Positions 31,552-57,824 of a stretch of 64,000 nt of DNA are shown piece after piece; the stretch's first letter is position 1, and every line of letters starts with the position of its first letter. A model generated the notes under the pieces. It had not been told where the DNA came from. It made no database searches and saw only the letters and a program-made list of their open reading frames with translations. The stretch is from a virus: IMG/VR virus record IMGVR_UViG_3300047333_000104, positions 3,649 to 67,648 of that record, one strand, 5' to 3'. The translations under genes were made by a program, and so were the position numbers.

Positions 31552-33342
31552 ATGCCCGATGGTAACTTCAGCCACATGGTGCCCAAGGCGGAACGCGATT
31601 TCGCGATCTCCAAAGCCGTCGATACGATGGCTCGGTTCGTCAACCCGAATGACCCGCTGCGCGACTTCTATCTGAGCGTCGCGGGCTATCGTCCGGAACT
31701 GACCGAGCAGATCCAGGCGAAGACGGCGCCGGAGATCGCCAAGGCGAATGCGATCGCCAAGATCTTCCGTTCCAACACCCGCGCCGCTCGGTTCGCGACC
31801 AAGAAGGAACTCGTCGAGAAGGGCGCCCTCTCGAAGGCGCAGCTTGACGTCGGTTCGCTCACCAACTTCGCGCAGATTACCGGCGGCCAGTCGCTCGGCT
31901 ATGTCTCGCTCGATACTCAGATGGCCCGCGGCACGGTGCGCCCAAACAGCTTCACGCTGTATCAGGCGCTCCACAAGTCGGCCGCTTTCCAGGTCGTCGA
32001 CTACTGGCCGTACGCTTCCGATACCGGCGGCGGTCTGCCCGGCACGGCATTCAGCGGCTTCAGCAACGTGTCCTCGGGCACCCTGTCGACCTCGGCCGGC
32101 ATCTACTCGCTGAACAACATCACGCTGAAGCTGGCCGTCAACGGTCGCGCGATCACCACCGCCCTGGCCGCCCAGAATTCCTTCGTGGATGTCTCGGCCC
32201 AGGAGAACATCAACGCGGCGCTGACGGTGCTGGAATCGGTCAACTGGTCCTGCTACTGGGGCAACCCTGCGCTCTACCCGAACCAGTTCCAGGGTATCGC
32301 GGGCGTCATTCCCGCCACCAACATCTTCGACTACCAGGCGTTCTACAACAACTTCGCCACGGCGCAAGGCTGGAGCGCCGCGCAGGCGATGTTCAACCTG
32401 ATCTACGAAGCCTCGGCGAAGATCACCGGCTACCGTCAGTACGGTCGCATCACGCACGCTTTCATGTCCCCGGTTTGCGCCGGCAGCTTGCAGGGCCTCG
32501 TGACCACGCTGCTGAACAACATCACCAACAACATCACGCCCGCCCAAGAACGTCTGCACGGCGTGATCGTCGATGGCGATCTGCAGGGCATCCGGACCCG
32601 CTTCGGCGAGATCCAGTTCCCGATCGACTTCTACATCACCGCTCGTGACAAGCCGGCCCAGACCGTCGTGTACGGCAACGGCACGAACGCCGCGTTCACC
32701 AGCAGCCCGACTCCCCCGACGTCCGTCGCCGCCGCCCTGGTTACGGGCGTGGTTTCGGGGTCCGCGTGGACGTCCGCCTATGTCGCCAGCAGCGGTATTT
32801 ACAGCTACGCGGTCGCCGGCTGCGATCAGCTGATGAACGAATCGTACCTGACCTTCGTGTCCTCGGGCGGCGTCGCCGCTTCGGGTCTGGCGGTCTCCGG
32901 CGTCACCGTCGCCAGCGGCGCCTACCAGCTGACGATTACCCCGGCGGACACCTCGTGCCAGGCGTTCCGCGTTTACCGCAGCGGCCTCGGCTACGCTCCG
33001 GTTGGTTCGGGCAACGCGAACCCCGCTTCATACCGCTACATCGGTTCGGTGCTGGCGTCGGGTTCGTCTCCCGTCACCTTCACGGACCTGAACACGTACA
33101 TCCCCGGCAGCGAGACGGTCTTCCTGCTCGATCTCGACGAACAAGACAATGCGATCGATTTCCGCTTCCTGCTGCCGCTGACGCGCATAGAGCTGTTCGC
33201 TCAGTCGCTATACATGCCCTGGGCCGTAGCAGAAATTGGTAGCGTAAGAGTTCGCATCCCCAAGTTCAATGGGTATGTGAAGAACTATGTTCCGGATTCG
33301 ACGGACTTCAATCCCTTAGCTCCGAACGCTCTCGCGACCTAA
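31552..33342 (+). CDS. Major capsid protein (SPO1/Twort-type with inserted beta domain)
   Basis: Highly codon-biased 596-aa ORF; YSYAV...ES, LTI, FRVYR, FTD.N.YIPG..VF, LLPL..I.L; probable KA cleavage of an N-terminal propeptide. Confidence 0.88.
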   Translation: MPDGNFSHMVPKAERDFAISKAVDTMARFVNPNDPLRDFYLSVAGYRPELTEQIQAKTAPEIAKANAIAKIFRSNTRAARFATKKELVEKGALSKAQLDVGSLTNFAQITGGQSLGYVSLDTQMARGTVRPNSFTLYQALHKSAAFQVVDYWPYASDTGGGLPGTAFSGFSNVSSGTLSTSAGIYSLNNITLKLAVNGRAITTALAAQNSFVDVSAQENINAALTVLESVNWSCYWGNPALYPNQFQGIAGVIPATNIFDYQAFYNNFATAQGWSAAQAMFNLIYEASAKITGYRQYGRITHAFMSPVCAGSLQGLVTTLLNNITNNITPAQERLHGVIVDGDLQGIRTRFGEIQFPIDFYITARDKPAQTVVYGNGTNAAFTSSPTPPTSVAAALVTGVVSGSAWTSAYVASSGIYSYAVAGCDQLMNESYLTFVSSGGVAASGLAVSGVTVASGAYQLTITPADTSCQAFRVYRSGLGYAPVGSGNANPASYRYIGSVLASGSSPVTFTDLNTYIPGSETVFLLDLDEQDNAIDFRFLLPLTRIELFAQSLYMPWAVAEIGSVRVRIPKFNGYVKNYVPDSTDFNPLAPNALAT

Positions 33343-33366
33343 CTTTCTCGGTTGCTCTCGAGCACT

Positions 33367-33398
33367 AAAGGCCCGCTACGTAGCGGGCCTTTTCTTTT
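33367..33398 (+). terminator. Rho-independent terminator after MCP
   Basis: AAAGGCCCGCTA CG TAGCGGGCCTTT followed by TCTTTT. Confidence 0.9.
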
Positions 33399-33407
33399 GA
33401 ATAGCTA

Positions 33408-33500
33408 TTGCGCAAAAAGTTTCATCGTGGCATAACAGGCGTGCCCTTTCCTCCACAGAAGGGGCACGCCCTAACCTACCCGTGAGAAGAGACCTCACCG
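33408..33500 (+). promoter_or_regulatory. Promoter and hairpin leader of HNH gene
   Basis: TTGCGC-17-CATAAC; hairpin 33438-33470; SD hairpin GTGAG-AAGAGAC-CTCAC 2 nt before ATG. Confidence 0.6.
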
Positions 33501-35186: not shown

Positions 35187-35199
35187 GAGTCTCACCCCA

Positions 35200-35310: not shown

Positions 35311-35368
35311 CCTTGTGCCTGCAATCGCGATATGCTGCCCGGTGCTCCCACAGTCAAGGAACAGCCTC

Positions 35369-35797: not shown

Positions 35798-36337
35798 GTG
35801 CCGGTCAGCGTCGCCGAGCGTGACGGGAAGTTCCGGATCGTCGGCCCCGACGGTAAGATTGAGGTGACGCCCGAGGGTCACGCCCGCGACGGCGGTGGTC
35901 ACGCCACGCACGAGGAGGCGGCGCGGCAGCAACGAGCGATCAATATGCACCTGGCCGAGAAAGCGCGGAAAGCCGTGCTCGACGTCGCCACCACATTAAA
36001 GGGGTCGAAGCGCATGAATGGATGGATCGGTGTTGACCTGGACGGAACGCTGGCGATTTATGACGGTTGGAGAGGGCCGGGGCATATCGGGGAACCGATC
36101 CCCCTAATGCTTGACCGCGTCAGAGAGTGGCTTGCGGCGGGTCAGGAAGTGCGGATCGTCACGGCGCGGGCGTCCATCAAGGAGCAGATCCCGCCGATCG
36201 AGCGCTGGCTGGAGGAGCACGGGATCGGCGGCCTCAAAGTCACGAATGAGAAAGATTTTGGCATGCACGAACTTTGGGACGATCGAGCGGTTCAAGTGAT
36301 CCCGAACACCGGACGTCGCGCCGACGGTGGTAAATAA
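35798..36337 (+). CDS. HAD-family phosphatase (PNKP-like) with N-terminal extra domain
   Basis: WIGVDLDGTLA, GEPIP.M, VRIVTAR, T..KD......DDRA; possible internal start at 36014. Confidence 0.8.
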   Translation: MPVSVAERDGKFRIVGPDGKIEVTPEGHARDGGGHATHEEAARQQRAINMHLAEKARKAVLDVATTLKGSKRMNGWIGVDLDGTLAIYDGWRGPGHIGEPIPLMLDRVREWLAAGQEVRIVTARASIKEQIPPIERWLEEHGIGGLKVTNEKDFGMHELWDDRAVQVIPNTGRRADGGK

Positions 36338-37344
36338 TGGCCCTCAACCCCGGTGGCGCCGCACCCCCGACAGTCCCGGACACAGCACTGTGGCTGTGGG
36401 ATACGAGCGGCCAGACGCCTGTCGTCAGCGGCTATCCGATTGGTAACGGCGTCTACGCGCCGACTAAGACGGGGCTGACGCCGCAGGATCTCCAGAACTT
36501 CGTCGGGGTGCCGCTCCAATACTACGGGAACCCGCCGGTTGCGGTCGCTTCGGGGGATATCCAGAATTGGATCAGGTACGCGGAGGATATGGTCGAGCAG
36601 GAGACATCGATCTTGCTGTGCCAGACATGGGTGGCGAGTCCGCCAGCGTTGTCTCCCGCTGACGTGCAGGCACAGGGGCTGATCGTCAATACGAACTCGG
36701 GGATACAGGAACTCGGTTTTGATTACGATTTGGAAGATTTTGGGTACGATTTCGTTTTTAATAGAGCACAGGATGAAGGTTGGAGCGCCCAAGTCCTTCG
36801 GTACCATCCTTTAAAATCGACCGCCTATAACACGGCAAGTGGCGCAGCAACCATGGGAACTACCGCAATAAAGAACTGGTGTTTTATCTATCCTTTGCTT
36901 AACACGTTTTTTCGAGTTCCACCGTCTTGGATAATTGAAGATCGCGATTTTTCATACTGCAGGCTGGTCCCGAGCACCAACGTGCAAATGCTTCCGTTGT
37001 TCGCTATGCAACTTGCCTTTATGGGATTCGCAGAATCGGTCCCAGGGTGCCACCATATCCAATACACTGCGGGTTTGACTCAAGTAGACTATCAAACTCG
37101 ATTTAGCTTCATGAAAGAGCTAGTGCTGGCGACGGCTTCGATTACTGCGTTGTCTTCCATTCAAGGAACTATTAATTTGGGTGCAGAGGGAGTAAACACG
37201 ATCGTTGACGGGCTACAAGTACAGTTTAAATATCCCTCCGCGGGTCCATTTGCGGGGCTGATTTCGCAACTTACCAAACGACGAGAACTCCTCCTAAAAA
37301 CTGCCAGAACCAAGGTGTCCGGGCCTATGATGAACACTCTGTAA
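36337..37344 (+). CDS. Head-tail adaptor (neck 1)
   Basis: I..WI..AE..VEQET.I.L, YTAG, ELV...A.I..L; TAATG overlap; position. Confidence 0.7.
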   Translation: MALNPGGAAPPTVPDTALWLWDTSGQTPVVSGYPIGNGVYAPTKTGLTPQDLQNFVGVPLQYYGNPPVAVASGDIQNWIRYAEDMVEQETSILLCQTWVASPPALSPADVQAQGLIVNTNSGIQELGFDYDLEDFGYDFVFNRAQDEGWSAQVLRYHPLKSTAYNTASGAATMGTTAIKNWCFIYPLLNTFFRVPPSWIIEDRDFSYCRLVPSTNVQMLPLFAMQLAFMGFAESVPGCHHIQYTAGLTQVDYQTRFSFMKELVLATASITALSSIQGTINLGAEGVNTIVDGLQVQFKYPSAGPFAGLISQLTKRRELLLKTARTKVSGPMMNTL

Positions 37345-38480: not shown

Positions 38481-39263
38481 ATGACCGGTCCCCCGCAGCC
38501 CACGACCTACCTTCCGGCGCTGCAGAGCATGAACCCGTACATGCTTCCGCCGGCTGCTTTCGAAAACCTGATCAGCGCATACGGCATCCGCATCTCGTGG
38601 TGCCGCGCCCACGCGTGCCCCTGTGTCTACGGCGGACCCATCCCCGGTTCTCCCGATACGCAATGCCAAACCTGTGGCGGCCGCGGCGTCTATTGGGACC
38701 AACCGCTCGGCCCGTTCCAGGGCTTGATCACGCTCGTTCACCGCGGTCCGACGCCAGACGAGCCCGGCTCGATCGTCGACGAGAACCAGGGCCTGGTGGT
38801 CAATGGCGAGCCGACCTTGACGATCCCCCACAATGGGCCGTTCGCTGGCCAGAATACGATCTGGGCCGAGGCGGGGATTAACGACCTATTCATCGAGATC
38901 GACGCGGTCTCGCGGTTCAACGCGCAGCTCCAGGTCGGTGTGCGGACACAGGTGCCGTATCAGTCGAATTTGACGATCGCACCGAGCGGAGCCGTCCAGG
39001 TCTATGATGCTGTCAATCACGTGGTAGTAACGGGGGTCAGCTATACGGTAAGCGGGGCATCCGTTATTGTCTCGGGATACCCGACCGGCACCAATTTTAT
39101 TTGCGACTTCACCGCCGCGCCTTGTTACGTCGGTTACCGAGTCGCCGGCATGCCGGCGCACGTTCGGCCGTTCGGGCAGTTGACTTTGCCACGCCGGTTC
39201 CGTCTGCAAACCCTCGACCTGTGGACGCGCGCGACGGGGAATGGGAACGTGCCGCACGTTTGA
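38481..39263 (+). CDS. Head closure/stopper (neck 2)
   Basis: W.RA..CPC......D..C..CGGRG..W; SPO1/Twort-like position. Confidence 0.7.
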   Translation: MTGPPQPTTYLPALQSMNPYMLPPAAFENLISAYGIRISWCRAHACPCVYGGPIPGSPDTQCQTCGGRGVYWDQPLGPFQGLITLVHRGPTPDEPGSIVDENQGLVVNGEPTLTIPHNGPFAGQNTIWAEAGINDLFIEIDAVSRFNAQLQVGVRTQVPYQSNLTIAPSGAVQVYDAVNHVVVTGVSYTVSGASVIVSGYPTGTNFICDFTAAPCYVGYRVAGMPAHVRPFGQLTLPRRFRLQTLDLWTRATGNGNVPHV

Positions 39264-40286: not shown

Positions 40287-40866
40287 CACCGTCTACACCG
40301 TCCACACGAACCTCGACCCGCAGGCTTTGAGTGCAGTCGGTCTCGAGGTTTTCCGCATGTGGATCGCCTTCGCCGCCGGCCAGGAAACCCTCAACGGCTT
40401 CCGCATCGAAAACCCGACCGGCCGTTACGCGGCGAGCATCGAGTACAAGCAGGTCGGCGAGGCCCAGGTCAGCATCGTGCAGCACGAGGACGTCGCCCCC
40501 GAAGGTGCCTTCCTCGAAGAGGGCACGAAGGAGATCGACATGCTCGCGGCAGGCTCCCCGTGGGTGGGACGCCGCATCCCGATGCACCGTGGACGACCAG
40601 GGCAGTTCGGCAGCCAAGGCAACTCGGTCCCGAAGAACTCTCCGGGCACGATCAAGCAAGCGCGCAAAATGAAGCATATCTGGGTCGAGGCACGAGGCGA
40701 CAGCGGCAGCGTGCTGGTTCCCCGATCGCGCGCCGAGGTGCGGCCCGGAGCGCGGAACACGAGCGGCACCGGGCCTGCCTGGACGATCCCCGCTATGCCT
40801 GCGTACTCGCCGGCCGGAACGCTGGCGGATCTCGCGGCTCGCTACGCCGCGTTCGGGGGCGGGTGA
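40276..40866 (+). CDS. Neck/virion morphogenesis protein
   Basis: TGRYAASI, FLE.G....DM, W.IPA.P; position. Confidence 0.65.
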   Translation: MMPNTVYTVHTNLDPQALSAVGLEVFRMWIAFAAGQETLNGFRIENPTGRYAASIEYKQVGEAQVSIVQHEDVAPEGAFLEEGTKEIDMLAAGSPWVGRRIPMHRGRPGQFGSQGNSVPKNSPGTIKQARKMKHIWVEARGDSGSVLVPRSRAEVRPGARNTSGTGPAWTIPAMPAYSPAGTLADLAARYAAFGGG

Positions 40867-41717
40867 TGAGCAGCATCAAGAGCTTGCTCGTTCCGACCGG
40901 CGGGGCCATCTCGTTTAGTATCGTCTCAAGCGGTACGACGACTTTCTCCCGCGCCGTGTCGGGCGTCGGCGGCCTTGGCTCTTTCACGCAGCTTTACAGC
41001 GGCGGCCCAATCCAGACGTACGTCGATACCGGTGATATGCTTCCCGCGCCGCTCGATCCGACGCAGCTTTACGTCTACCAGATGGTCGACGCGAACGGTA
41101 CGCTGACCACGCCGCCGATCCAGCCCTATGTGGCTTTGAACCTCCAGCAAGAGCCGCTTCTCGCTCTATTGATACGGCTCCTGCAGGCAGGCGTCACGAA
41201 CCTCATCACTCCGACCGGCGTCCAGCCGTGCCAAGTGCTTCAGGCGATGCCTCTCGTCGGCTTCCCGCCTATGCCGTTCATGGTCGTCAATATGGACCTC
41301 ATGCAGCAGGCGGAAATCCCGATCGGCCAGTCGGCGGAAGCGGTCGACATGAACGGCAATTGGACGATGACGGGATTTGCTCGCCGTGTCTTTCGCATCT
41401 CCGTGCTTGCCCAGAATACGACGGACCGGGATTTCTACCGTGATGCCTCGATCGGGATTTTCGAGAGCATCATTAAATCGGTGCTGACCCCTCTTGGCCT
41501 GGACGTCCGCCACCGCTACCAAGCGGCCGCCGGCCAAGTCGCGAATGATAACATGGGCCAGAGCCCCGGCTTTTATTATGCCGACGTCATGTGTACGTTT
41601 GAGGGCACATTTAACATCCTGATCACGCCTCAGTATGGCTTGATGAACACGATCACCTTCACCGGTACGCAAGCCAGCGACGGCAAGACCGTTATCTCGA
41701 CTACCGCGACGGCATAA
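40866..41717 (+). CDS. Tail completion/terminator-like protein
   Basis: ATG overlapping TGA; R.SVLA.NT..RD....D; position before sheath. Confidence 0.6.
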   Translation: MSSIKSLLVPTGGAISFSIVSSGTTTFSRAVSGVGGLGSFTQLYSGGPIQTYVDTGDMLPAPLDPTQLYVYQMVDANGTLTTPPIQPYVALNLQQEPLLALLIRLLQAGVTNLITPTGVQPCQVLQAMPLVGFPPMPFMVVNMDLMQQAEIPIGQSAEAVDMNGNWTMTGFARRVFRISVLAQNTTDRDFYRDASIGIFESIIKSVLTPLGLDVRHRYQAAAGQVANDNMGQSPGFYYADVMCTFEGTFNILITPQYGLMNTITFTGTQASDGKTVISTTATA

Positions 41718-41996: not shown

Positions 41997-43778
41997 ATGC
42001 CCAATCTTGACATCCCTTTCCAGGGTCAAACGCTCGTTAAACCAGGTGCGTACTACGCCGACAACGTCTCGGCGGTCGCCTCTTCGAACGCCACGCCCGC
42101 GCCCCCGCTGATCTATCTCGGCAACGGGTACGGGCAGAAGCCGCAGACCGCCGTTACCTACGGCTCGTCCCAGGCCCTCCTCGCCGCCTTGCGTGGCGGT
42201 CCGGCCTCCGGATACGTTCCGTTCCTATACAGCCCCTCGGGGCAGTTGAGCGGCGCGCAGCAAGTCACCTTCGTGAATGTCAGCGAGAACACCCAATCGG
42301 CTTTGACGCTCTACTCAGGCACCTCGGGCCTGATCAATCTGACCTCGACGAATTATGGTCTGCCGTCGAACCTCCTTTCCGCGTCGGTCGCCGCGTCCCC
42401 TGTGTCCGGCAAGACGATCACGCTCTATGACAATTACGCCAACACGAGCCTCGTCGGCACGAACCTCGGCGTCCCGTTTGCGCTCGCGTACACGGGTGCC
42501 GCGACCGGCGTGACCTATACCGTGACGACGGTGAGCGGCTCGTCGACGCAATTGGCGATCACCAGTCCGAACGCGGGAGAGTCGCAGACGATCCCGCTCA
42601 GCGCCGGCACATTCGCGACGGTCGAGGCGGTCGTCAACTTCCTCAACGGGACGGGGTACTACTCGGCCTATACCTTCAGTAATGCGGCGTTGCCCTCGAC
42701 CAGTCTTGATGCCGCGTCGGCCGTCGCACTGTCCAAGCCCGTCTCCGGCGTTAATCAATATGTCGGCGTTACGGCGACCCTCGGCGACCCGATCTTCTGG
42801 GTTAACCAGTATGCCCAGCTTTATGCGACGGCGGCCCTCTATACCAGCGGAACAGTGTCAAGTCCGGCTTCGGGTTTGTCCACGTTGGCTCCGACGCTGT
42901 TCTCGGGCGCTGCGAACGTCCCTCCGGCGCTCTCCGACTATGCCTCCGGCTTCAACCTCGCGCTGACCTTGAACGGGTCGGTGATCTTCGCCGACAGCAA
43001 TGCCTCGGGCGTCGTCGCTCTCGGCTCGCAGCATTCCGTGACAGCCAGTAGCCCCGCGCAGGGGCATTGGCGCCGGTTCTTCTCGGGCTCGTCGATTGGC
43101 GACTCGGTCACGAACGCTATTACGGCCGCGCAGTCCTGCAACGCGATCTCGGCGACTTACGTGTACCCCGGCATCTACCGGACCAGCACGACGACCGGCC
43201 TCAACACGCTCTATGGTGGCGTCTATGCGGCAGCGGCTGCCGCGGGTATGGCGGCGGGAAACCAAGCGTCCCTCCCGCTGACCAATAAGGCGTTGACGGG
43301 TAATGGCGTGGAAGTCGCGCTGACGGTCACGCAGATCGATCAGCTTCAGCAGGGCGGCGTTATGCCCATCGGGCTCAGTTCGGCCGGCGTGCCTTCGATC
43401 ATCTCGGACTTTACGACTTGGCAGAATGACGCCAACCCCGAGAACGTCTTCAACCAGCAGGTCGCTTGCCGGTATTATGCCGCCTACACGTTGCAGGCTG
43501 CTCTGCAGCCCTACGTCGGCACCGTCTCGTCGCCGCTGAATGAGGTTCTTGTATTGCGCGCCGCGCAGACGGCCCTCAACGGTCTGGTCTATTCGCAGAA
43601 TAACGTCAATGGCGTGCTGGCGTCCTGGAACCCGGCGACCCTGCAGCTGGTCTATACCGGCGCGACGCAGACCGCCGCGGTCTCCGTCCAGGTGCAGTTG
43701 GTCGGCCAGAACCGGTTCATTACCATGCTGGTCGGGATTCAGCCGCTGAACTTCACTACCACGATTTCCACTCAGTGA
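41997..43778 (+). CDS. Tail sheath protein
   Basis: F.G....KPGAY, GIY, AAG.A......LT.K.L, QIDQL...GV, D.TT; 593 aa before tube. Confidence 0.9.
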   Translation: MPNLDIPFQGQTLVKPGAYYADNVSAVASSNATPAPPLIYLGNGYGQKPQTAVTYGSSQALLAALRGGPASGYVPFLYSPSGQLSGAQQVTFVNVSENTQSALTLYSGTSGLINLTSTNYGLPSNLLSASVAASPVSGKTITLYDNYANTSLVGTNLGVPFALAYTGAATGVTYTVTTVSGSSTQLAITSPNAGESQTIPLSAGTFATVEAVVNFLNGTGYYSAYTFSNAALPSTSLDAASAVALSKPVSGVNQYVGVTATLGDPIFWVNQYAQLYATAALYTSGTVSSPASGLSTLAPTLFSGAANVPPALSDYASGFNLALTLNGSVIFADSNASGVVALGSQHSVTASSPAQGHWRRFFSGSSIGDSVTNAITAAQSCNAISATYVYPGIYRTSTTTGLNTLYGGVYAAAAAAGMAAGNQASLPLTNKALTGNGVEVALTVTQIDQLQQGGVMPIGLSSAGVPSIISDFTTWQNDANPENVFNQQVACRYYAAYTLQAALQPYVGTVSSPLNEVLVLRAAQTALNGLVYSQNNVNGVLASWNPATLQLVYTGATQTAAVSVQVQLVGQNRFITMLVGIQPLNFTTTISTQ

Positions 43779-43800: not shown

Positions 43801-44283
43801 ATGCCCGCATTTAGCCCTACCCAGATAAATCCGAACAGCCGCACTGCGAACATGGCCCTGATTCTCGTGGGGGATCAGCCCATTGCGTTCGCGCAGACGG
43901 TCAACCACAGTCTCGAGTACGGCGCCGAAAGCTTTTACGGCATCGGCAGCGCGAAGCCGCAGGAGATCCAGCAGCTCCGCAACAGTATGCAGATCACGAT
44001 CGACAATTTCGATCTGACGACGAACGGCATGGCGCTGATCCAGGACAACGATACGCCGCTGAGTTCGATCCTCTCGAACAACTCTCTGAATATCTCCGTG
44101 GTCGACGGCATTACCAACGTCTCGCTGTTTACCTATGTCGGCTGCGTGTCGACGACGTTCAGCCAAGCGATCTCGGCCAACCAGCCGATTACCGACGCGT
44201 ACACCTTTCATGCCCTCGACGTGCTCGACCAGACCGGTCAGTCGATCCTCAACGGACCGAATGCGTTCTCCGTTACAAACTAA
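43801..44283 (+). CDS. Tail tube protein
   Basis: I..AQ......YG.E..Y.IG...P.E; 160 aa after sheath. Confidence 0.85.
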   Translation: MPAFSPTQINPNSRTANMALILVGDQPIAFAQTVNHSLEYGAESFYGIGSAKPQEIQQLRNSMQITIDNFDLTTNGMALIQDNDTPLSSILSNNSLNISVVDGITNVSLFTYVGCVSTTFSQAISANQPITDAYTFHALDVLDQTGQSILNGPNAFSVTN

Positions 44284-49214: not shown

Positions 49215-49700
49215 ATGAACTCCGAGTCACTCTCCCTTCCCGAAGTCATTCGCTTCACCCCCGATCAGGTCATCGACCCGCGCGGCCGCTCCTGCGAGGT
49301 GCGGATTCCCGACGTCTCGTTTTCTCAGTCGCGGGTGTTCAATTCGGTTCCTTGGTCGCTCCACGGCATTTACAGCAACGGCGCGGGGCGGTTGGTGCGC
49401 TGCTTGAGCGGCAGCATTTTCCTCGCCGCCGTCGATTTGCGCGACGACTCCGCCACCTACCTCCAGAGCACGAACTGCCGGATTGACGGCACTACGCAGC
49501 AAGCGGTGTGGGTGCCCCCCGGTTTCGGCTACGGCTTCCTGGCTGACGAGCAGGGCGTCACGGTGCTGGTCGAGCAGACCGAACCGAGCGTCGATCAGAT
49601 CACCAACTGGAATAGTCCGTCACTGAGCATCCCGTGGCCGCTGATGCGGAACATGAAAGTCATTACGCCTATTCTCTCCAACCAGGATCGGGCCGCGTGA
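49215..49700 (+). CDS. RmlC-like cupin (dTDP-sugar 3,5-epimerase fold), catalytic residues substituted
   Basis: [18 protein letters not shown]...[24 protein letters not shown]. Confidence 0.8.
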
Positions 49701-49918
49701 TGGTTACAGGTGTCGTCAAATGGTACAACGCCGCCAAAGGCTACGGCTTTATCCTGCCGGACCTTCGCGTTAACGGTGGCGGCGACGTGTTCGTGCATGC
49801 GTCGGCGGTCGAGGAGACCGGCCTCGATACGCTCGTCGAGGGCCAGAAGATCGGTTTCGACATCGGAACGTCTGCCCGCACCGGGCGTAGTTGCGCCGTC
49901 AACTTGAAAGCGATCTAG
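49700..49918 (+). CDS. Cold-shock domain protein
   Basis: [41 protein letters not shown]. Confidence 0.95.
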
Positions 49919-49920
49919 TT

Positions 49921-50853
49921 ATGGGGGGCATCCCGCTCCTGACGGTCGGGCAGGTTTACGCTCATGCGCCCGATAACGGCGGCGTGCGGGTAATCCTCCG
50001 GTCGTCAGGGCAGGACCCCGGCTACGTCGTCCGTATGGGGTACGTGGGACCGGCGGACACGCTGCGGATCAGGCAGCGCCCGTTGCCGACGCGCGGCTCC
50101 TGGGGGCTCATCGCGTTCCCCTACGGCGATATCCGCAACGGCGTGTGGATCTGCACGATCTTGCCGAGTTTGGCGGACGCGCTCACCTCTACGGCATCCG
50201 GCGTCTCAGATCTCGACCCCTTCATCGACTATGAGTCGCACTATAGCGGGTTCTGGAAAATGCTCGACGGGCTCGGCCAGTTGTCGATGCAGTTCCCGGA
50301 TGGCAGCAGCTTCGTGGTCGGATCTGGGACGGCGTTACCGACGACCTACCGCCACACGGTGACGTCAGGGAACGTTCGAGAGAAAATCCCCTTCGTGACA
50401 GCAGATCGGATACCGAACCCTCCGTCGCCCTACGCGCTGACGCTGGCGATGAAATCAGGTGCTACGATCTCGGTGGATGCCAGCGGGAACACCTCTGTTT
50501 CAACGGTTGGCAATATCTCGGCGATTGCCTCGGGTACCGCTTCGATTACGGCGTCCGGTAACGTAACGGCGGTATCCGCTTCCGGTTCCGTTTCTTTGAC
50601 AGACGGAAAAGGCTCCAATTTCACGCTGAGTAACGACACAAATGGGTCGGCAACAATGGCGGGAACCCTCACCTTGGCCTGCAATGTGGTTGTTACGAAG
50701 ACTCTTGCCGTGAGCGGGGCAGTGACCGGTAGTAGCACCGCAGTCTTCACCGGCAATGTGACGGGTCAGGGTACGTCACTTCACACGCACACCCATAATG
50801 TTTCGGGCGTTCAGACTGGTGGATCGACGCTTCCGACCACCTCGCCGAACTAA
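49921..50853 (+). CDS. Baseplate central spike (gpV/gp45-like)
   Basis: N-terminal OB-fold region, beta-helix xxG repeats, terminal SLHTHTHNVSGVQTG Fe-binding HxH. Confidence 0.85.
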   Translation: MGGIPLLTVGQVYAHAPDNGGVRVILRSSGQDPGYVVRMGYVGPADTLRIRQRPLPTRGSWGLIAFPYGDIRNGVWICTILPSLADALTSTASGVSDLDPFIDYESHYSGFWKMLDGLGQLSMQFPDGSSFVVGSGTALPTTYRHTVTSGNVREKIPFVTADRIPNPPSPYALTLAMKSGATISVDASGNTSVSTVGNISAIASGTASITASGNVTAVSASGSVSLTDGKGSNFTLSNDTNGSATMAGTLTLACNVVVTKTLAVSGAVTGSSTAVFTGNVTGQGTSLHTHTHNVSGVQTGGSTLPTTSPN

Positions 50854-50889: not shown

Positions 50890-52689
50890 ATGAGCACCTA
50901 CCTCCGTCCTACGCCGAACACTAGCCTCAAATCCTCATCTCTGTCGGCTTATGCGACAGGGGTCGTGGTCAACGCGCGCTATGCACTCGACGCCTGGGCG
51001 ATCTCAGGATCGGCGATGGTGCAGACGCCAGTATCAGGTGCGGTCGGTGCGTCTGGCATCGGCAGTCTCGTCTCGTGCTCGGATGGCGCGTCGGGTGAAT
51101 GGATCGCTCAAATCGCCGGCTCGGTGGTCCGTTACGCTTCGGGCGGCGCGGTGACGGCATATTCGATGCCGACGTCCGCCGCGCTTACCGGGGCCGCTTA
51201 CAGCGCTACTCAAAGCGCCCCCTATTTTCTCAGCGCGAACGGAGCGCTCTCGACGATCTCGGGCGCTGTATCGGCCGCCGTAGGGAGCGGCTTCGGTGCG
51301 TCGGGCTTTGCGCTTGCCACCTCAGGGTCCACCCTATTCGCGCTGCTCCCTGGCACGCCCGCGCTCGGAACGTTCTTGTTCGCTACGGCGACGACGGGTA
51401 CGAGCGGTTCGATCGCGGCTCCTATCAGCGCGCCGTCCTGTCTGGCGGCAATCTCCGGTTTCGTCGCGGTTGGCGGCTGGAACTATGCCGGTCTCGGCTC
51501 CGGCTTCACCAGCATGGCGATTAGTCCGGCTACGTTTTCCTCCTTGATCGGCGCAACTCCTTCAACGGGCCGCGTAAGCGCGTGGGGCGTCACGACGGGT
51601 AATACGTGGGCGCTTACAAGCGTCGCTTCCGGTCTTGGCGCACCTAACTATGTCGCCTGGATGCCGAGCGGCCTCTACGCCCTAGCCTCCGACCCGACGA
51701 ATGGCACGCTCTATAATTTCTCCTATTCACTCGGGACGCTGACGCAGATCCAATCTTTGGCTATCGCGGGCGCCGGCCCCGTGGCGATGCTTCCCGACAA
51801 CATCCACGGGTTGCTATGCAGGACCGCGGCCAACCAAGCATTGGCGTTGACTTACGCCGGCAGCGCAGTGTCTTCCGGTACCGGGTTCGCGATCACGGCG
51901 CCTACCTCGATCGCTTATGCAGGAACGTCGGGCCAAATTCTAATCGGGTGCGCTTCGGGACTGGCTCTCGCCACTATCAATGTGAGCGGAGTCTGGTCCG
52001 TGACGGCCACCGGGTCGGTCGGCTTCACGCCGTCGTCGCTGTTCGTGGATGCGTCCGGCAACGCCTACTGCGCTGCCACGTCGGGGGCTTCCGGGCTTTA
52101 TGCCATCGCGACGTCGGGTCTCGCTCTGGTCGGCTCTGGGTCATTCGCGGGGTCGGCGGTGGGTATCGTTTACCAGCAAGGTCAAACCCTCGTAGCCGAC
52201 GGCGTCAACGCGGTCGTGCGGGGCTTCGGCCCCCGAGGGTCGGTCTACAGTCAATACGCTTCCGCTGCTGCGCCTGCCGGCCTCGCCTCGATCGTGCTGA
52301 ATGCTTTCGAAGGATCGGAGCAAGACATTTTTGCCTCCGGTACCTCGACGACCTACCAGCTTAGCCTCACCGCCCCCTATTACGCAGATCGCGTTCGACA
52401 AGGGGCGGTATCCGTCTACGCATCGGGCGCCTGGACGAATTATGTGCTGCCGGTCGATATCCTTCCCGAGGCAATTGCCTGGAACCCGTCAGGCAATTTG
52501 TCCGTCTATATGCTGACCAACACGCTCTATACCTTTTCATCGGGCTTGGCGCTCATCAGCTCCGGGACAGTCTTGCAACAGCCGAGTATCGCGCAGACGA
52601 CACCGATCGGCGTCTCCAACCTTCTGTGGCAGAACGGTTCGCTTTACGGCTCGACAGGGCTCAATGACTCGTTGGTGCAAATCCAATGA
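50890..52689 (+). CDS. Ser/Gly/Ala-rich beta-propeller-like tail/baseplate protein
   Basis: 599 aa, 28 SG dipeptides, repeated P..(I/V)A blade motifs. Confidence 0.65.
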   Translation: MSTYLRPTPNTSLKSSSLSAYATGVVVNARYALDAWAISGSAMVQTPVSGAVGASGIGSLVSCSDGASGEWIAQIAGSVVRYASGGAVTAYSMPTSAALTGAAYSATQSAPYFLSANGALSTISGAVSAAVGSGFGASGFALATSGSTLFALLPGTPALGTFLFATATTGTSGSIAAPISAPSCLAAISGFVAVGGWNYAGLGSGFTSMAISPATFSSLIGATPSTGRVSAWGVTTGNTWALTSVASGLGAPNYVAWMPSGLYALASDPTNGTLYNFSYSLGTLTQIQSLAIAGAGPVAMLPDNIHGLLCRTAANQALALTYAGSAVSSGTGFAITAPTSIAYAGTSGQILIGCASGLALATINVSGVWSVTATGSVGFTPSSLFVDASGNAYCAATSGASGLYAIATSGLALVGSGSFAGSAVGIVYQQGQTLVADGVNAVVRGFGPRGSVYSQYASAAAPAGLASIVLNAFEGSEQDIFASGTSTTYQLSLTAPYYADRVRQGAVSVYASGAWTNYVLPVDILPEAIAWNPSGNLSVYMLTNTLYTFSSGLALISSGTVLQQPSIAQTTPIGVSNLLWQNGSLYGSTGLNDSLVQIQ

Positions 52690-53420
52690 CGACCACCAGC
52701 AGCTTCCAGTCCTTCTCGACCCGCCCCGTGCTCAATACGCGGCTGGCTCTCTACGCCCTGTCGATCCGGTCGCCGGGCGGCGCCGCCTATCAAACCTATA
52801 CCTTTCCGATCTCCCCAGCGTCATTGGTCAAGGAGTATTCCGCCCTCACGAACTCGTTTGACGTGGCCGGCACGCCGCAGCAGAACGGTGTTCAGCGGAC
52901 AATTGATACTTACGGAATCACTCCGGTTTCGTACCACCTCGACGGAACGACGGGTTGGCAACAGCATTCGACGGATGGCTTCGTCGCGACGGGCATCGAG
53001 TCGATCCTCCAGCTCGAACAGATGCTTGCGCTTTATGCTCAGTTAAACGCAACTGCCGTCGCCGGTAATCAGCCGCTCTACACGCTGGAGTTCTTCGATT
53101 ACTTCCTGAACGATTTCTGGCAGATCGAACCGATGGGGCGCCAAGAGTTCCGTCAGTCTCGCGAGCGGCCGCTGGTCGTGAATTACTCGCTGCACTGGCA
53201 GGGAGTTCGCGACCTATCCGCGCCCGCCGGCCCGTCCTCGACGACTACGCTATTTGATTCGAGTTCAAGCAGCGTAGGCACCACTGCGGCCGCAACATCC
53301 TTCCTCGAGACCGGATACGCTGATAACACGCCGGGTGCGCAGGCGCTCCAAACCACCTATGGCGTCCCGAGTAGCCAAGCGGTGTCTGCCGGCGCATTTA
53401 CAGGAGCGGCGACCGGATGA
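52686..53420 (+). CDS. Tail tube initiator-like baseplate protein
   Basis: YTFPISP, ID.YG......L.GTTG, LEFFD, RPL..NY.L; SPO1/Twort-type order. Confidence 0.7.
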   Translation: MTTTSSFQSFSTRPVLNTRLALYALSIRSPGGAAYQTYTFPISPASLVKEYSALTNSFDVAGTPQQNGVQRTIDTYGITPVSYHLDGTTGWQQHSTDGFVATGIESILQLEQMLALYAQLNATAVAGNQPLYTLEFFDYFLNDFWQIEPMGRQEFRQSRERPLVVNYSLHWQGVRDLSAPAGPSSTTTLFDSSSSSVGTTAAATSFLETGYADNTPGAQALQTTYGVPSSQAVSAGAFTGAATG

Positions 53421-54868
53421 CCACCCCCATCTTCTCAGGATACTCCGGAGCCGTGTGGCAGTCGGTCTATGCGAGCATTTGCTACTACCAGGCTCAGTTG
53501 ACCGCTCCTCAAGCCTCAGCCAATCCCGCGTCCGTCATAAGCCTGTCGGAAGTCATGCTCCAGACTTTGCTCAACGCGGACGATGCGATCGTCGCCAGCG
53601 CGATGGCGGCCGCTTGGGCAGTTGAATCCACCCATCTCACTACCGTCTCGACTTTCCCTCTTGGCTCGATCTCGCCAGTCAACGCCTCTTTCTTCAACAA
53701 CCGTCTGGCCTCCTACGACGCAGCTACCCCGGCACTCACGGCCATCGTCCCAGCCACGAGTTCGTTCTTGAACCCGTTCCAGGGGATAGCTAACGGAATC
53801 CCCGCCATCCCGCCGTGCAATCTTCTCGGCTTCTTCGCGGCGTTTAATTACGAAACCCCGCCGGTCGGTCTGAACGCGGCGAACTTCGCGGCGCAGGCGC
53901 AGGGCGTGGCGAGCGCGTTCGCTGCGGTAGCGGTCGCCGTCCAAATTTTCCAAGGAGTGTTCCCTACCCAGGCGTACGATACCGTTACGCAGGAGGAGAA
54001 TGTCGCTAATGCCGCAGCTTACTTGATCTCGTCGTTTACGTCGGGGACGGTAGCTTCGGGTTCTGCGTCTGCGTGGAACCAGATCGTCGCCCTGCCCGCC
54101 ATGACCATGTCCGCCGATATCATAACCGGCGCCCCCGTAGCGGCATCGGCGCAGCAGCAAGCCACGATTCGTTACGCGATGCTCTCCCTGGCCGCTCAGA
54201 TAGCCGAGTTTCTCGCTACGGCCGCAATCCCGACTACAGGCCAAGTCAACACGGCCACACTCATGGTTGGACAGAACCTGCTCGACGTGGCGGCGCAGGC
54301 GCTCGGAAATTACGAACTGTGGCCGGAGATCGCGGCCCTCAATAACCTCCTCCCCCCCTACGTCGGGGCAGTGGCGGCCCCGGGGATCGCCGCGTGGGGA
54401 ACGCAGCTCCTCCTGCCGTCTCCCGGAACGCAGATGGCCGCCAATGGCGTTACGATCTCGTACGACAACAACGTGCTGGGAACCGATCTTTACGTCGGCC
54501 CGATCAACGGTGACATGCCGGCCTGGGAGGGGGACTTCCAGTCGATAACTGGCTATTCGAATCTCGCGTGGGCGCTCGGTCGGCGGTTGCAGACCGCTCT
54601 CGGGTCTTTAGTGTTCCATCCGGACTACGGCAGCCGAATCCCGCCAGAGGTAGGAATGGTGCTGGACGACTCGACGGCGGGGCATATCGCGGCGTACGGT
54701 AAATCGGCGCTGCTGAATGACCCCCGGGTACAAAGCGTTACCTCCGCCTTGTCCAATTTGATCGCGAACCAAGGCGTTTCTTTTAGCGCGACGGTCCAAC
54801 CGATCGGTATTGGTTCTACCCCCACGCAGGTAAATCAGGTTATCGTTTCGCCGAATCAGCAAGGATAG
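53417..54868 (+). CDS. Baseplate wedge protein with LysM-like and gp25-like domains
   Basis: L.D.AAQ.LG....W.EIA.LNNL; G..NL..AL..RL.T..GSL..HPDYGS, L..DPRV. Confidence 0.8.
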   Translation: MTTPIFSGYSGAVWQSVYASICYYQAQLTAPQASANPASVISLSEVMLQTLLNADDAIVASAMAAAWAVESTHLTTVSTFPLGSISPVNASFFNNRLASYDAATPALTAIVPATSSFLNPFQGIANGIPAIPPCNLLGFFAAFNYETPPVGLNAANFAAQAQGVASAFAAVAVAVQIFQGVFPTQAYDTVTQEENVANAAAYLISSFTSGTVASGSASAWNQIVALPAMTMSADIITGAPVAASAQQQATIRYAMLSLAAQIAEFLATAAIPTTGQVNTATLMVGQNLLDVAAQALGNYELWPEIAALNNLLPPYVGAVAAPGIAAWGTQLLLPSPGTQMAANGVTISYDNNVLGTDLYVGPINGDMPAWEGDFQSITGYSNLAWALGRRLQTALGSLVFHPDYGSRIPPEVGMVLDDSTAGHIAAYGKSALLNDPRVQSVTSALSNLIANQGVSFSATVQPIGIGSTPTQVNQVIVSPNQQG

Positions 54869-54871
54869 GCC

Positions 54872-56035
54872 ATGGCCCTCGAACCGACTGTCGCCGCCCC
54901 TCCCTCCACTCAAACCGTGGCATCGCAGTTCTTGGCGAGCATGGCGGCGCTGTCCGGGGTTTTGACCGACTACAATTCCGGATCGCAGGTTCGCACGATC
55001 GCCGAGAGCCTAGGTTCGGTGGTGGAGCAGCAGAGCATCTGGACGCAGGCGGAGGCGTTTCAAGCGCTCGCCTACGGCGCCATGACGGTTCTGGGGATAA
55101 CCCCGTACGCGGCGTTCCCTTCGGTCGGACAGCTTACCTTCGCCACGGCACCCGGCAGCCCGTACCCGACTGCGACCCAGAACGTCAACATCCCCGCCGG
55201 CACCCTTGCGCAGACGACGGGCGGCGTGCAGTTCGTCACGACCGCTAACGCGGTTCTCGCGAGCGGCACGACCAGTATCGTTATCCCGGCGACAGCGGTG
55301 CTGGGCGGGGTCGCAGGAAACGTTCCGGCCGGCGCGGTTACTCAGATCGTCACGGGGCTTCTCTACCCCCTATTCGTCACCAACGCGGCAGCTTTCACAG
55401 GGGGTACGAACGCGGAGCAGCTGGCCGCCACCTTGGCGAGGTTCTCCTCGGCGGTAGCGGCGATCGGTTTGGCCTCTCCCGTCGCCATCGCGAATGCGGC
55501 GATCGGTGTGACGAACCCGGCGACGAGTGAGGAGGTGCTTTTTAGCACCCTGTACGAACCCTTCGTGGCGGCGGGAAGCGGCGCGGGGTCGGGTGTCGCG
55601 GGTTGGACGCTCTATATCGATAACGGCACTGGCGCCGCCAGCTCAGGTCTCATCAACAACGTTATCAGCAAGTTGAACGGTAACGCCGCTTCAGGGCAAG
55701 TTGGATACCGAGATGCGGGCGTGCCCTACATCGTGTCCGGAGTAACCCCCACCTATGCCGTCGTCGGCGTATCGGGGACAGCGTCGAGCCTGACGACCGA
55801 CGCCGCGTTGCAAACCCTGATCAACCAGGCGGTCAGTGGGTACTTCATGCTGCCCTTTGGAGCGTCGGCGCAGCAGGCAGTGCTCGCGCAGAATGTCGGA
55901 AATGCGGTCCTCGGCTTAATGACCTCGCTGACGGTATCACTGTACGCTTCCGGGTCCGGGTCTCCGCTCACAGCTTTGACGCCAGCCGTGACTGGCCGAG
56001 TGGTGCTCGGGCAGATCAACTATGCGCTGAATTAG
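54872..56035 (+). CDS. Baseplate J-like protein
   Basis: LTDYN.GS..RT..E, IPAGT..QT..GV.F.TT, A...G..GNV..GA.T, N..AF.GG...E. Confidence 0.88.
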   Translation: MALEPTVAAPPSTQTVASQFLASMAALSGVLTDYNSGSQVRTIAESLGSVVEQQSIWTQAEAFQALAYGAMTVLGITPYAAFPSVGQLTFATAPGSPYPTATQNVNIPAGTLAQTTGGVQFVTTANAVLASGTTSIVIPATAVLGGVAGNVPAGAVTQIVTGLLYPLFVTNAAAFTGGTNAEQLAATLARFSSAVAAIGLASPVAIANAAIGVTNPATSEEVLFSTLYEPFVAAGSGAGSGVAGWTLYIDNGTGAASSGLINNVISKLNGNAASGQVGYRDAGVPYIVSGVTPTYAVVGVSGTASSLTTDAALQTLINQAVSGYFMLPFGASAQQAVLAQNVGNAVLGLMTSLTVSLYASGSGSPLTALTPAVTGRVVLGQINYALN

Positions 56036-56037
56036 CC

Positions 56038-56679
56038 ATGGATTTTCCGACCGTCCAAGCCTCGCTCAACGACCTTCCTCCGACATTCAAGCGGTCGAAC
56101 GCGCCATTCCTCCAGGTCGTCGATTCCGAGTCCGCGGCGTTATCGCGGCTGACAATGGCGGCCGACACCATACTGAGTATGGTGAGGAACATATCGAACG
56201 CGCAGTATGGCTGGCTTGACTTTTGGGGCCTGTTGTTCGGCATTGCGCGCAACAATAACGAATCCGACGCGACGTATCTCGCCCGCACTCTTTTCACCCT
56301 CCAGAACGGGGCCGGGCCGCCGCTCGCGATCGTTAATTGGATTCAACTCGTCTGGGGCGTCACGGCCACTTTTGCGGAGAACTTTCCCGCCCTTGGATAT
56401 AGCCTCTCTTTTCCGCCGGCCATCACGCCTGCCCAGCTTCAAGTGATCGTCCAGGGGCTCGTCCGCGTGCGTCCAGCCGGCGTCCCTTTCGCTACATACT
56501 CGGCCAGCGCGGGGCCGTACTTGGATACCGTTAATTTTCTCGACTGTCCGCGCATCTCCGGCGCATATGTCGGCGGGGGCGGAGCAACGCGGGTTTTTGT
56601 AACGCAATCCGCCGCCACTCCGAACAGCACGCCCGGATTGCCGACGCTATTCATGACTGACCCGACGTTGAACGCCTAG
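56038..56679 (+). CDS. Baseplate wedge I-like protein
   Basis: WLD.WG.LFGI.R...ESDA.Y..R, ...VRPAGV. Confidence 0.8.
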   Translation: MDFPTVQASLNDLPPTFKRSNAPFLQVVDSESAALSRLTMAADTILSMVRNISNAQYGWLDFWGLLFGIARNNNESDATYLARTLFTLQNGAGPPLAIVNWIQLVWGVTATFAENFPALGYSLSFPPAITPAQLQVIVQGLVRVRPAGVPFATYSASAGPYLDTVNFLDCPRISGAYVGGGGATRVFVTQSAATPNSTPGLPTLFMTDPTLNA

Positions 56680-56750
56680 TCCGCCTGCAACTAGCGCAAA
56701 ACCGGCGCTTGCCTTACACTCACGCGTAGATACCCTCTAGGAACCCGTGG

Positions 56751-57824
56751 ATGCCCCAAAACCCAAATTACACGGCGTACGAGTTTTTGAGCGCGGCAGC
56801 GCTGAACGCTGCGGCGGGTGTCGTATCTGGGTCTCTTGCGCAAATCGTTTCGGGCGTCTCAGCGCCCGGTCTCGTTCACCCAGAAGTTGTCGGGTTAACG
56901 GCAAGCGGTCTCGTCGTTACGGTAACCGCGCCGCTGCCATTCCAAACGCTTTTCGGTTCCGGCGTCCTGGCTTCCGCGTCTGGCGTAACGACGGGCGTAA
57001 CGTCGTCAACCTACTCCGTCAATTTCTCGGGCGTCGTGCCAGTCTCGGGCGCCGCAGTAACCGCATACCTCCTCGCGTCCTACGCCTCGATATTGGAAGG
57101 CGCGTACCAGGTTGTCGGCCCCCCGCAAGGCCACCCCGACTACAATCCTCTCTTCGTGCCTGCGACGGCCTATGCTTCCCAGCTTGACACGATCGCGTTG
57201 GCAGCCTCCCTGACGGCGCCGGACAACGTTACGACGTTCGAACTCGCGCGCTGCACGCTCGCATCCGGCGCGACGGGCGTAGGCAGTCTCAGCACGGCGT
57301 ACCAGCAGCGGGCTTCCGCCCTGCCGGCGACTCAGGGGTTGCAAGTCTCGGGCGCGATCACGCTCACGCCCGCCGCGCACGGCGGCAAGACGCTAGTGTT
57401 CGTCGGCAGCGGTACGGCAACCCTGTGGCCAGCGGCGTCCGGTAACGGGCTCGGCGTGACTTTTGTCTCGACGACCAGCGGCACGGTTGCGGTTCAGACG
57501 ACCGGTGCGGACCTCATTTATGGGTCGGCTAGCTATGGCGGCTCGGGCGGCGTATCGGGGATCACCGTTGCGCAAGGATCTCAGATCGAGTTGGGGTCGC
57601 TGTACGGGATCTGGCAGACGCAGAGTCTCTCCCCAAACGCCAAAGGCAGCGTTACGCCCTCCTCGAACCAGACATATGTGGCGGCGGTGTCAGGGGCGGT
57701 AGTCTCAGGGAATTATGCGATCTTTAACGACACCACCGGAACCGTCGAGGATAGTGGAACCTCCCCGGCGACGGTTAACTCCACAGGGTCCGCCGCCCTA
57801 TATCAACTCGGATATCTTCTCTAG
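56751..57824 (+). CDS. Tail fibre/baseplate protein, SG-rich
   Basis: 17 SG in 357 aa; position after wedge genes. Confidence 0.7.
   Translation: MPQNPNYTAYEFLSAAALNAAAGVVSGSLAQIVSGVSAPGLVHPEVVGLTASGLVVTVTAPLPFQTLFGSGVLASASGVTTGVTSSTYSVNFSGVVPVSGAAVTAYLLASYASILEGAYQVVGPPQGHPDYNPLFVPATAYASQLDTIALAASLTAPDNVTTFELARCTLASGATGVGSLSTAYQQRASALPATQGLQVSGAITLTPAAHGGKTLVFVGSGTATLWPAASGNGLGVTFVSTTSGTVAVQTTGADLIYGSASYGGSGGVSGITVAQGSQIELGSLYGIWQTQSLSPNAKGSVTPSSNQTYVAAVSGAVVSGNYAIFNDTTGTVEDSGTSPATVNSTGSAALYQLGYLL

Follow-up and report, generated by a model that had tools for sequence, protein, structure and literature searches.

A candidate [A/V]-Ser-Gly acceptor motif on the virion proteins of a myovirus clade encoding a giant glycosyltransferase

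An uncultured phage from a moss metagenome, known from an 87-kb IMG/VR record (IMGVR_UViG_3300047333_000104, estimated to be 93% complete), raises the question of why serine is so frequently followed by glycine in virion proteins of unrelated folds. The window, which is the whole 64-kb stretch of this record analyzed here, carries a myovirus morphogenesis module on its plus strand (21.2-57.8 kb) and, within it, the gene of a giant multi-module glycosyltransferase (GT). An initial annotation of this DNA had proposed that Ser-Gly (SG) pairs are concentrated in exposed virion domains as a putative glycosylation sequon. The motif proved to be real; it could be sharpened to [AV]-S-G, is avoided on the tail tube and is linked to the GT2 module of the transferase, while the sugar itself stays conjectural. 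In our judgement, the chances are about even that [A/V]-Ser-Gly, located in short inter-strand loops, serves as acceptor for an O-glycosylation system which the phage encodes and which coats the virion proteins.

Ser-Gly in the virion proteins of this phage

The SG content of each protein was compared with shuffled sequences in which its own composition was kept. Over the pooled virion proteins, 140 SG were counted for 74.8 expected (z 7.8), which places SG first among the 400 dipeptides; HR comes next (z 4.8), and the values for GS, TG, NG and DG are z 2.3, 1.3, 1.4 and -1.0, respectively. No SG excess was found in the non-virion proteins of the phage (83 vs 91 expected). As had been suspected, the enrichment therefore exceeds what the Ser and Gly content predicts. 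In SG pairs, serine (six codons) and glycine (four codons) are encoded in near background proportions and the commonest hexamers are frame-specific. Since all Ser and Gly codons are used in this manner, the signal lies at the protein level.

The module begins with the terminase C-terminal half, followed by the portal, the 1292-aa glycosyltransferase, head-maturation genes, the major capsid protein (MCP), neck proteins, sheath and tube; its second half encodes an SLT-domain tape-measure protein, an RmlC-family protein, the spike, a 599-aa all-beta protein, the tube initiator, baseplate J and the fibre. The virion proteins considered are the following.

22278..23957, plus strand: portal, 559 aa (weak match to Pfam Phage_portal); 6 SG
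31552..33342, plus strand: MCP, 596 aa; HK97 fold of the SPO1/phi812 type, helical at the N-terminus and with an insertion rich in beta structure (about residues 385-510); 11 SG
36337..37344, plus strand: neck/adaptor-region virion protein, 335 aa; 6 SG, 0 GS
38481..39263, plus strand: virion structural protein, 260 aa (phrog_1004); SG excess mainly in relatives
40359..41717, plus strand: virion protein, 452 aa, upstream of the sheath; SG excess at family level
41997..43778, plus strand: tail sheath, 593 aa (weak match to Pfam Phage_sheath_1, profile match to the phi812 sheath); 14 SG
43801..44283, plus strand: tail tube, 160 aa; 0 SG, 17 Ser
49891..50853, plus strand: spike-like protein, 320 aa (weak gpV apex motif); 12 SG
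50890..52689, plus strand: tandem beta-propeller baseplate protein, 599 aa (AlphaFold2 model, Foldseek); 28 SG vs 16 GS
53417..54868, plus strand: baseplate protein, 483 aa (phrog_975 baseplate); SG excess at family level
54872..56035, plus strand: baseplate J-like protein, 387 aa (Pfam Baseplate_J, E 7e-18); 12 SG, 10 of them in the C-terminal half
56751..57824, plus strand: fibre-like protein, 357 aa; 17 SG vs 10 GS

The SG counts obtained by hand in the initial annotation were all reproduced (MCP, sheath, tube, baseplate J, spike and portal as listed, and 5 in the GT), as was the preponderance of SG over GS in the propeller and the fibre. Taken singly, seven proteins exceed their shuffles: the propeller (z 6.0), the fibre (z 5.5), baseplate J (z 4.7), the sheath and the spike (z 3.6 each), and the MCP and the 335-aa neck protein (z 3.5 each). 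Clustering within the proteins was also found as described. Nine of the 11 SG of the MCP lie at residues 402-503, inside the insertion, and region 385-510 as a whole contains 9 SG for 2.6 expected (z 4.7). Similarly, all 14 SG of the sheath are located at residues 71-363, corresponding to 14 vs 5.1 expected over residues 1-390 (z 4.25) and 0 vs 1.05 over residues 391-593. The zeros reported for the inner parts, the tube and the sheath C-terminus, are correct as counts, but neither is significant alone (0.9 and 1.05 expected).

For the tube, avoidance becomes significant only when seven orthologs are considered together, with 1 SG for 9.6 expected (Poisson P 7e-4), whereas GS occurs 10 times vs 9.4. 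The tubes of outgroup phages without the GT contain 4, 4 and 1 SG, and in an alignment the homologous columns of the clade read TA, NA, TG, NG or Y-G. These statistics show selection against SG on the tube and for SG on most virion proteins. A depletion in the 555-aa tail protein of this phage (1 vs 4.5 expected) is not kept in relatives and was discarded.

The residue preceding the pair is also biased. Position -1 is A or V at 48% of the SG sites vs 21% expected, and A/V reach about twice the expectation in all six genomes. The context had been described as [AVST]-S-G; the enrichment of alanine and valine stood, while serine and threonine are not enriched at this position. A second glycine after SG is disfavoured (4 vs 11.6 expected).

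Structure matches support the protein labels on which these assignments depend, and show that those of the initial annotation were right. The AlphaFold2 model of the MCP (pLDDT 83.9) finds its best fold match in the SPO1 capsid protein (9vel_C, Z 26.6, rmsd 2.9, 402 aligned residues), a match which spans both the core and the insertion domain; the phi812 capsid protein (5lii) follows with Z 21.9, and plain HK97 cores align over about 260-290 residues, i.e. about 120-140 fewer than SPO1/phi812. The MCP thus belongs to the SPO1/phi812-type HK97 proteins. Its residues 1-104 (31552-31860) consist of a helical stretch of about 90 residues and a low-confidence linker (91-104); they contain 0 SG and have no counterpart in outgroup MCPs, which measure about 490 aa. 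This N-terminus resembles a scaffold-like delta domain and probably includes a site of cleavage at maturation. A profile of the sheath matches the phi812 sheath (5li2, E 6e-6), although a single-sequence search of solved structures gave no match. The propeller model (pLDDT 87.4, pTM 0.82) is all-beta and matches tandem WD/DDB1-type propellers (Foldseek, E 1e-15).

In the propeller model, 23 of the 28 SG are placed within or bordering inter-strand loops, and several are predicted to form a two-residue hairpin with Ser as the last residue of the strand and Gly as the first of the loop. The insertion SG of the modelled MCP likewise lie in loops beside strands. Such a predicted position fits exposed acceptor loops and, equally, a structural turn motif.

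Relatives, outgroups and the giant transferase

The relatives used are nine IMG/VR genomes whose MCPs are 49-76% identical to that of this phage. In the virion orthologs of five of them, SG reaches z 12.3, 7.0, 9.2, 9.7 and 4.7, with GS and TG near expectation, and the excess amounts to 1.7-2.3x across relatives of 49-66% GC. When each protein of the phage is combined with its orthologs into a family, the observed/expected SG ratio is 2-2.9x over the virion set, propeller included, with shuffle z up to 17. The values are 2.25x for the MCP (z 7.7), 1.96x for the sheath (z 6.9), 2.29x for the spike (z 6.3), 2.72x for baseplate J (z 11.0), 1.96x for the fibre (z 7.1), 2.51x for the 335-aa protein (z 5.7), 2.92x for the 260-aa protein (z 7.5), 2.19x for the 452-aa protein (z 5.3) and 2.18x for the 483-aa baseplate protein (z 5.7). 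At the same level, no SG excess was found in the GT, terminase, protease, scaffold, chaperones, tape measure, 555-aa tail protein and RmlC families. The portal, which had been called low in SG, is in fact enriched as a family (1.97x, z 4.9; GS 13 vs 20).

Larger samples gave the same picture: in-clade MCPs (n=120) contain on average 7.8 SG vs 3.8 expected, and GT homologues (n=62) 3.9 vs 4.3. About 390 MCP homologues are known from the clade. The two low-SG in-clade MCPs P0260 and P0261 are located on 3-4 kb contigs. Three clade MCPs (P0136, P0193 and P0199) occur in metagenome-assembled genomes labelled Acidiphilium, Rhodospirillales and Patescibacteria, labels which are a weak lead to Acetobacteraceae-type Alphaproteobacteria as hosts, or reflect mis-binning.

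The individual sites are partly conserved. Serines at SG sites are more conserved than other serines (e.g. 0.52 vs 0.27 in the propeller), and about half of the SG sites are shared among orthologs; turnover is high, with 77 distinct SG columns over five propeller sequences.

In Pseudomonas phage Dolphis and Thermus phage Lalka8, the structural genes are related and largely colinear, and 0 GT homologues occur; their pooled SG gives z 1.2 and 0.1, respectively. Outgroup MCPs (n=102) contain a mean of 3.0 SG for 3.0 expected (mean z -0.02), and at the SG positions of the clade, the outgroup MCP and sheath have other residues, with Gly often kept. The expectation that the enrichment would be lacking in relatives devoid of the GT was borne out insofar as the excess is absent or weak there, but Bordetella phage PHB04 still shows 1.34x. 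In Streptomyces phage Zuko, whose similarity to the giant GT is limited to the N-terminal module, the dipeptides TG and GT are raised as much as SG, so that its signal is not Ser-specific. A mild bias of SG over GS is general in phage virion proteins, and the 2-3x Ser-specific excess of the clade is well above it.

The candidate enzymes are encoded by four genes, which together look like a glycan-type gene set.

18635..19612, minus strand: GT9-family heptosyltransferase-like protein, probably 288 aa from an internal Met (Pfam Glyco_transf_9, E 6e-14)
20548..21117, minus strand: S-adenosylmethionine (SAM) methyltransferase, part of the minus-strand cassette that also holds GT9 (Pfam Methyltransf_23, E 1.4e-11)
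24371..28249, plus strand: giant multi-module GT, open reading frame (ORF) of 1292 aa, database form 1269 aa (Pfam GT2, E 8e-22); 5 SG
49215..49700, plus strand: RmlC-family cupin (dTDP-4-dehydrorhamnose 3,5-epimerase family), among the tail genes (Pfam PF00908, E 1.9e-23)

The giant GT is present in 9/9 of the IMG/VR relatives and has 62 near-full-length homologues. Its gene is found directly after the portal in most metagenome loci and, in this phage, before the head-maturation genes. In the protein, a GT-B-like module at the N-terminus (about residues 39-359) matches phrog_7162 (E 4e-38); it is followed by a middle part which is near GT2 proteins in a feature search, and by a GT2 module (about residues 816-1040) with an NDDT motif of DxD type. 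The match to the GT2 family PF00535 reaches 78.4 bits vs a cut-off of 23.3, and the best solved relative is chondroitin polymerase. In relatives G005 and G006, the match to the GT crosses one in-frame TAA. The RmlC protein (83.4 bits to PF00908 vs a cut-off of 27; orthologs in G001 and G005) is, as far as its sequence tells, either an active epimerase or a sugar-binding part of the virion.

The two GT modules recur, 31% identical and in permuted order (E 1e-57 and 4e-34), in a Chromobacterium enzyme of 1283 aa (P0073). Its locus contains sugar-synthesis and methyltransferase genes on one side and two flagellin genes on the other, along with flaG, fliD and fliS. The giant GT therefore shares its catalytic modules with a flagellin-island enzyme. 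As an independent check for an SG rule, the two flagellins of this island gave SG z 0.8 and 1.9.

A metagenome scan yielded 80 further loci, in which the post-portal transferase was sorted into three classes. Class I has an own-type GT2 module with NDDT-like, NDV-FC-like and H-E motifs, the NDDT motif itself being conserved among these relatives; class II is a full-length GT homologue which has lost the GT2 motifs, DxD included; class III keeps the N-terminal module only, its C-terminal parts being different ones. Loci without a GT in the 10-kb flank were scored as 'unknown' and not as GT-less; their upstream genes are unrelated, e.g. ThyX, a GH5-containing protein or methylases. For MCP, neck proteins, sheath and portal taken together, the SG ratio is 2.02x in class I (z 11.9), falling to 1.45x in class II and, in the main lineage of class III, to 1.15x (z 1.3; MCP alone 0.73x). 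The class I/class III ratio is 1.75 (p 1.7e-5, with no phylogenetic correction). In the MCP tree, five class III loci form one supported clade with 1-6 SG per MCP, and the MCP of its sister locus L160, of class I, has 11. Inside the clade, SG content hence follows the state of the transferase in the predicted direction, but over about one transition plus two weaker ones.

The forms of the post-portal transferase are diverse in loci L133-L212: full-length, DxD-lost, with other GT2/GT1 C-terminal parts, or split into two genes (L144/L210). Some relatives also differ in the genes that precede the head-maturation genes: L175 has a 1451-aa protein with a GH5 cellulase domain at its end (127-4479) and a TROVE/vWA protein (5205-6578), and L179 a sugar C-methyltransferase-type enzyme (L179:2383-3573).

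Acceptor site, turn motif or another chemistry

We infer a modification of these serines from the Ser-specific selection, of which modification of the hydroxyl is the most economical cause; the conserved and co-varying transferases make O-glycosylation the leading candidate. If so, the giant GT, fixed between the portal and the head-maturation genes, would be co-produced with the structural proteins. Using host nucleotide sugars, possibly a dTDP-6-deoxyhexose as the RmlC homologue suggests, it would attach a sugar, before or during assembly, to the serine hydroxyl wherever an [AV]-S-G turn is exposed on the capsid, neck, sheath, baseplate, propeller and fibre proteins. The GT9 protein and the methyltransferase might extend or tailor the glycan. 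Selection would then multiply the motif on the coated proteins and strip it from the tube, because the tube must stay bare for stacking inside the sheath. With the balance slightly against so full a statement, we tentatively propose that a widespread myovirus clade of soil, moss and freshwater coats most of its virion proteins through an [A/V]-Ser-Gly turn sequon, by means of a giant transferase built from flagellin-glycosylation modules, and that the motif has been purged from the tube and decays when the GT2 module is lost.

Several observations weigh against an acceptor site. Some concern the motif itself: at SG sites Gly is more conserved than Ser, the propeller family having many invariant G and few invariant S, and the pairs occupy tight beta-turns where the structure needs Gly. 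The excess is kept in 16/16 propeller homologues (27-100% identity; SG z 5-9, GS and TG flat), as a fold-linked motif would be. The portal, an internal protein of the mature virion, is enriched too, which a rule of exposure on the mature virion alone does not explain. Unrelated phages also have mildly more SG than GS, with PHB04 at 1.34x (z 2.3) and Zuko at 1.34x. Other observations concern the enzyme. Among the best 80 bacterial loci with the GT2 module, 0 have a flagellin gene within 10 kb, and these homologues resemble polysaccharide enzymes, so that the GT could build a non-protein glycan. The within-clade association amounts essentially to the transitions mentioned above, the contrast between clade and outgroup adding one more; some relatives with a full-length GT homologue reach only 1.4-1.5x SG, and L191 has a variant GT and yet 1.8x. 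In addition, the halves of the large terminase (TerL) are adjacent in L164 and L171, and loss of the GT9 cassette, which lies between them in this phage, may coincide with the class III transition; the responsible enzyme is thus not pinned to the GT2 module.

The best-surviving alternative, which we consider possible though clearly the less likely explanation, is that [A/V]-S-G is a structural turn motif, i.e. the strand end and tight turn preferred, by fold and ancestry, in the all-beta virion domains of this lineage, and that the GTs act on host envelope polysaccharide, free glycan or DNA. It would account for the location of SG at strand-loop boundaries, for the stronger conservation of Gly, for the sharing of about half of the sites among orthologs and for the partial recurrence of propeller SG at the blade spacing of about 42-44 residues. 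The persistence of the excess in all propeller homologues, the enrichment of the internal portal, the mild bias of PHB04 and Zuko and the polysaccharide-type relatives of the GT2 module agree with it as well. Beta-turn preference had been named as a possible refutation of the sequon; since SG do sit at beta-turns, the structural explanation stays a candidate, but the classic turn pairs NG and DG, and also TG, are not enriched. Moreover, the homologous turns of the outgroups have other residues before Gly, which indicates that Ser is not needed for these folds, and the beta-rich tube is depleted in SG instead of being enriched. The bias is also common to proteins of unrelated folds, and MCPs within the clade, alike in fold and comparably diverged, contain from 1 to 11 SG, tracking the type of GT. 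The turn motif is kept under consideration by the loop position, the stronger Gly conservation, the portal and those GT-bearing relatives whose excess is weak.

An unlikely variant retains the motif but changes the initiator or the chemistry: the Cys4 protein of family GT9 would act on strand-loop-strand acceptors like the bacterial autotransporter heptosyltransferases (BAHT, of Aah/TibC type), or Ser would carry another modification, with the giant GT elongating the glycan or serving elsewhere. The GT9 protein reaches 52.4 bits with Pfam PF01075 (cut-off 22), and its profile matches the GT9 structures 3tov and 1psw (E 1e-9). Orthologs are conserved in G001, G004 and G009; none was seen in G005, whose contig ends before the terminase region. 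The C-terminal CxxC-x12-C-x6-C motif is invariant and lies about 18 residues past the last residue aligned to TibC (332), near the position of the TibC iron finger, which is formed by Cys 339, 342, 358 and 370 (PMC4358343); the spacing differs. TibC catalyzes Ser-only O-glycosylation and modifies TibA Ser-313 in the sequence N-S-G-G (PMC4358343), whereas S-G-G is disfavoured in the phage. In L164 and L171, the absence of SG excess goes along with adjacent TerL halves and no cassette, as GT9 involvement would predict. However, the GT9 protein scores 20.1 bits with the BAHT model NCBIfam TIGR04414 vs a cut-off of 200, and the lipopolysaccharide (LPS) heptosyltransferase I/II models score higher, although also below their cut-offs. 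It is devoid of the N-terminal beta-barrel of about 97 residues of BAHT and opens directly on the N-lobe motif which aligns with residues 2-9 of LPS-type GT9 structures, a typical LPS-heptosyltransferase N-lobe. Its presence can be scored in few loci, their flanks being short, and its involvement presupposes a host supply of ADP-heptose.

The cassette is inserted in a split large terminase, whose ATPase ORF (14441-15316) and nuclease ORF (21203-22285) are 5.9 kb apart. The gap holds a 571-aa DUF4214 protein and the minus-strand genes of a GP88-like protein, a CxxCxxCC protein, GT9 and the methyltransferase. Among relatives, the gap contains GT9 only in G004, the two halves are adjacent ORFs in L164/L171, and G003 has one intact TerL of 644 aa.

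An artefact of composition, of codon or DNA-motif bias or of shared repeats is very improbable: SG-enriched proteins are rich in Ser and Gly, but composition is ruled out by the shuffles that keep it, a DNA-level motif or codon-pair bias by the use of every Ser codon box and by frame-specific hexamers, and a shared mobile domain by the lack of any domain common to these proteins (all pairwise E > 0.6), while the excess extends over 49-66% GC and GS is not enriched.

Known glycosylation systems and remaining genes

An O-glycosylated [AV]-S-G turn would resemble the modification of AIDA-I and TibA by AAH and TibC, in which many serines of one substrate, in short inter-strand loops of an all-beta protein, are used; the phage carries a GT9-related Cys4 enzyme as well. 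It would differ in that the phage GT9 fails the BAHT model and has no barrel, that SGG is disfavoured, that a dozen unrelated proteins are candidate substrates instead of one beta-helix, and that the better-correlated phage enzyme is the GT2-containing giant protein.

In Pseudomonas syringae, Fgt1 transfers rhamnose, the first sugar of the glycan, onto six serines of flagellin (PMC3927599). Like the flagellin islands of Fgt1/Fgt2 and Chromobacterium, in which a cytoplasmic transferase modifies serines of the exposed flagellin part, the phage combines a large multi-module transferase with a self-assembling surface structure, and has an RmlC homologue and a methyltransferase. Unlike in these islands, the module order is permuted and the GT gene is beside the portal and not beside flagellin; the likeness to Fgt1 is drawn by description. 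To our knowledge, no Ser-Gly rule has been described for Fgt1.

Phage-encoded virion glycosylation is already known in kind. Mycobacteriophage-encoded glycosyltransferases are said, in work by Freeman and co-workers from 2023 to which PMC12582341 refers, to decorate the capsid and tail proteins of their own virions, the acceptors reportedly being C-terminal stretches of capsid and tail-tube subunits. In the present clade, as in such systems, a phage-encoded GT is conserved with the structural genes. It departs from the mycobacteriophage systems in that the candidate sites are internal turns over many proteins and the tube is depleted, and in host, phage type (SPO1/Twort-like myovirus module) and enzymes. 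A further parallel is the eukaryotic proteoglycan xylosyltransferase, a Golgi enzyme of another family, whose acceptor is a Ser followed by Gly and which needs acidic flanks; the phage SG has A/V at -1 instead, and the likeness is not one of homology.

What is new, and unproven, is the [AV]-S-G motif, its avoidance on the tube and its link to the GT2 module. Together, these three elements name serines, proteins and enzyme modules as a concrete prediction. As far as we know, phage virion glycosylation has been described in very few systems and an acceptor rule has been defined for none. If correct, the prediction would provide the first acceptor code to be defined for the glycosylation of phage virions and a portable pair of sequon and enzyme for protein decoration; glycosylated phages would become recognisable by sequence alone, with a bearing on particle stability, adsorption and immune or defence recognition. 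If incorrect, a strong lineage-specific turn motif would be left, and a warning for similar 'sequon' calls.

Two further features were observed in or near the structural genes. Three ORFs of homing-endonuclease type are located in or beside them, at 33501-35186 (HNH), 37325-38227 (minus strand, GIY-YIG+NUMOD3) and 62998-63714 (HNH+NUMOD3). After the fibre gene, a 313-aa ORF (58243-59184) encodes a protein with 38% glycine, whose 13 SG are as many as its composition predicts.

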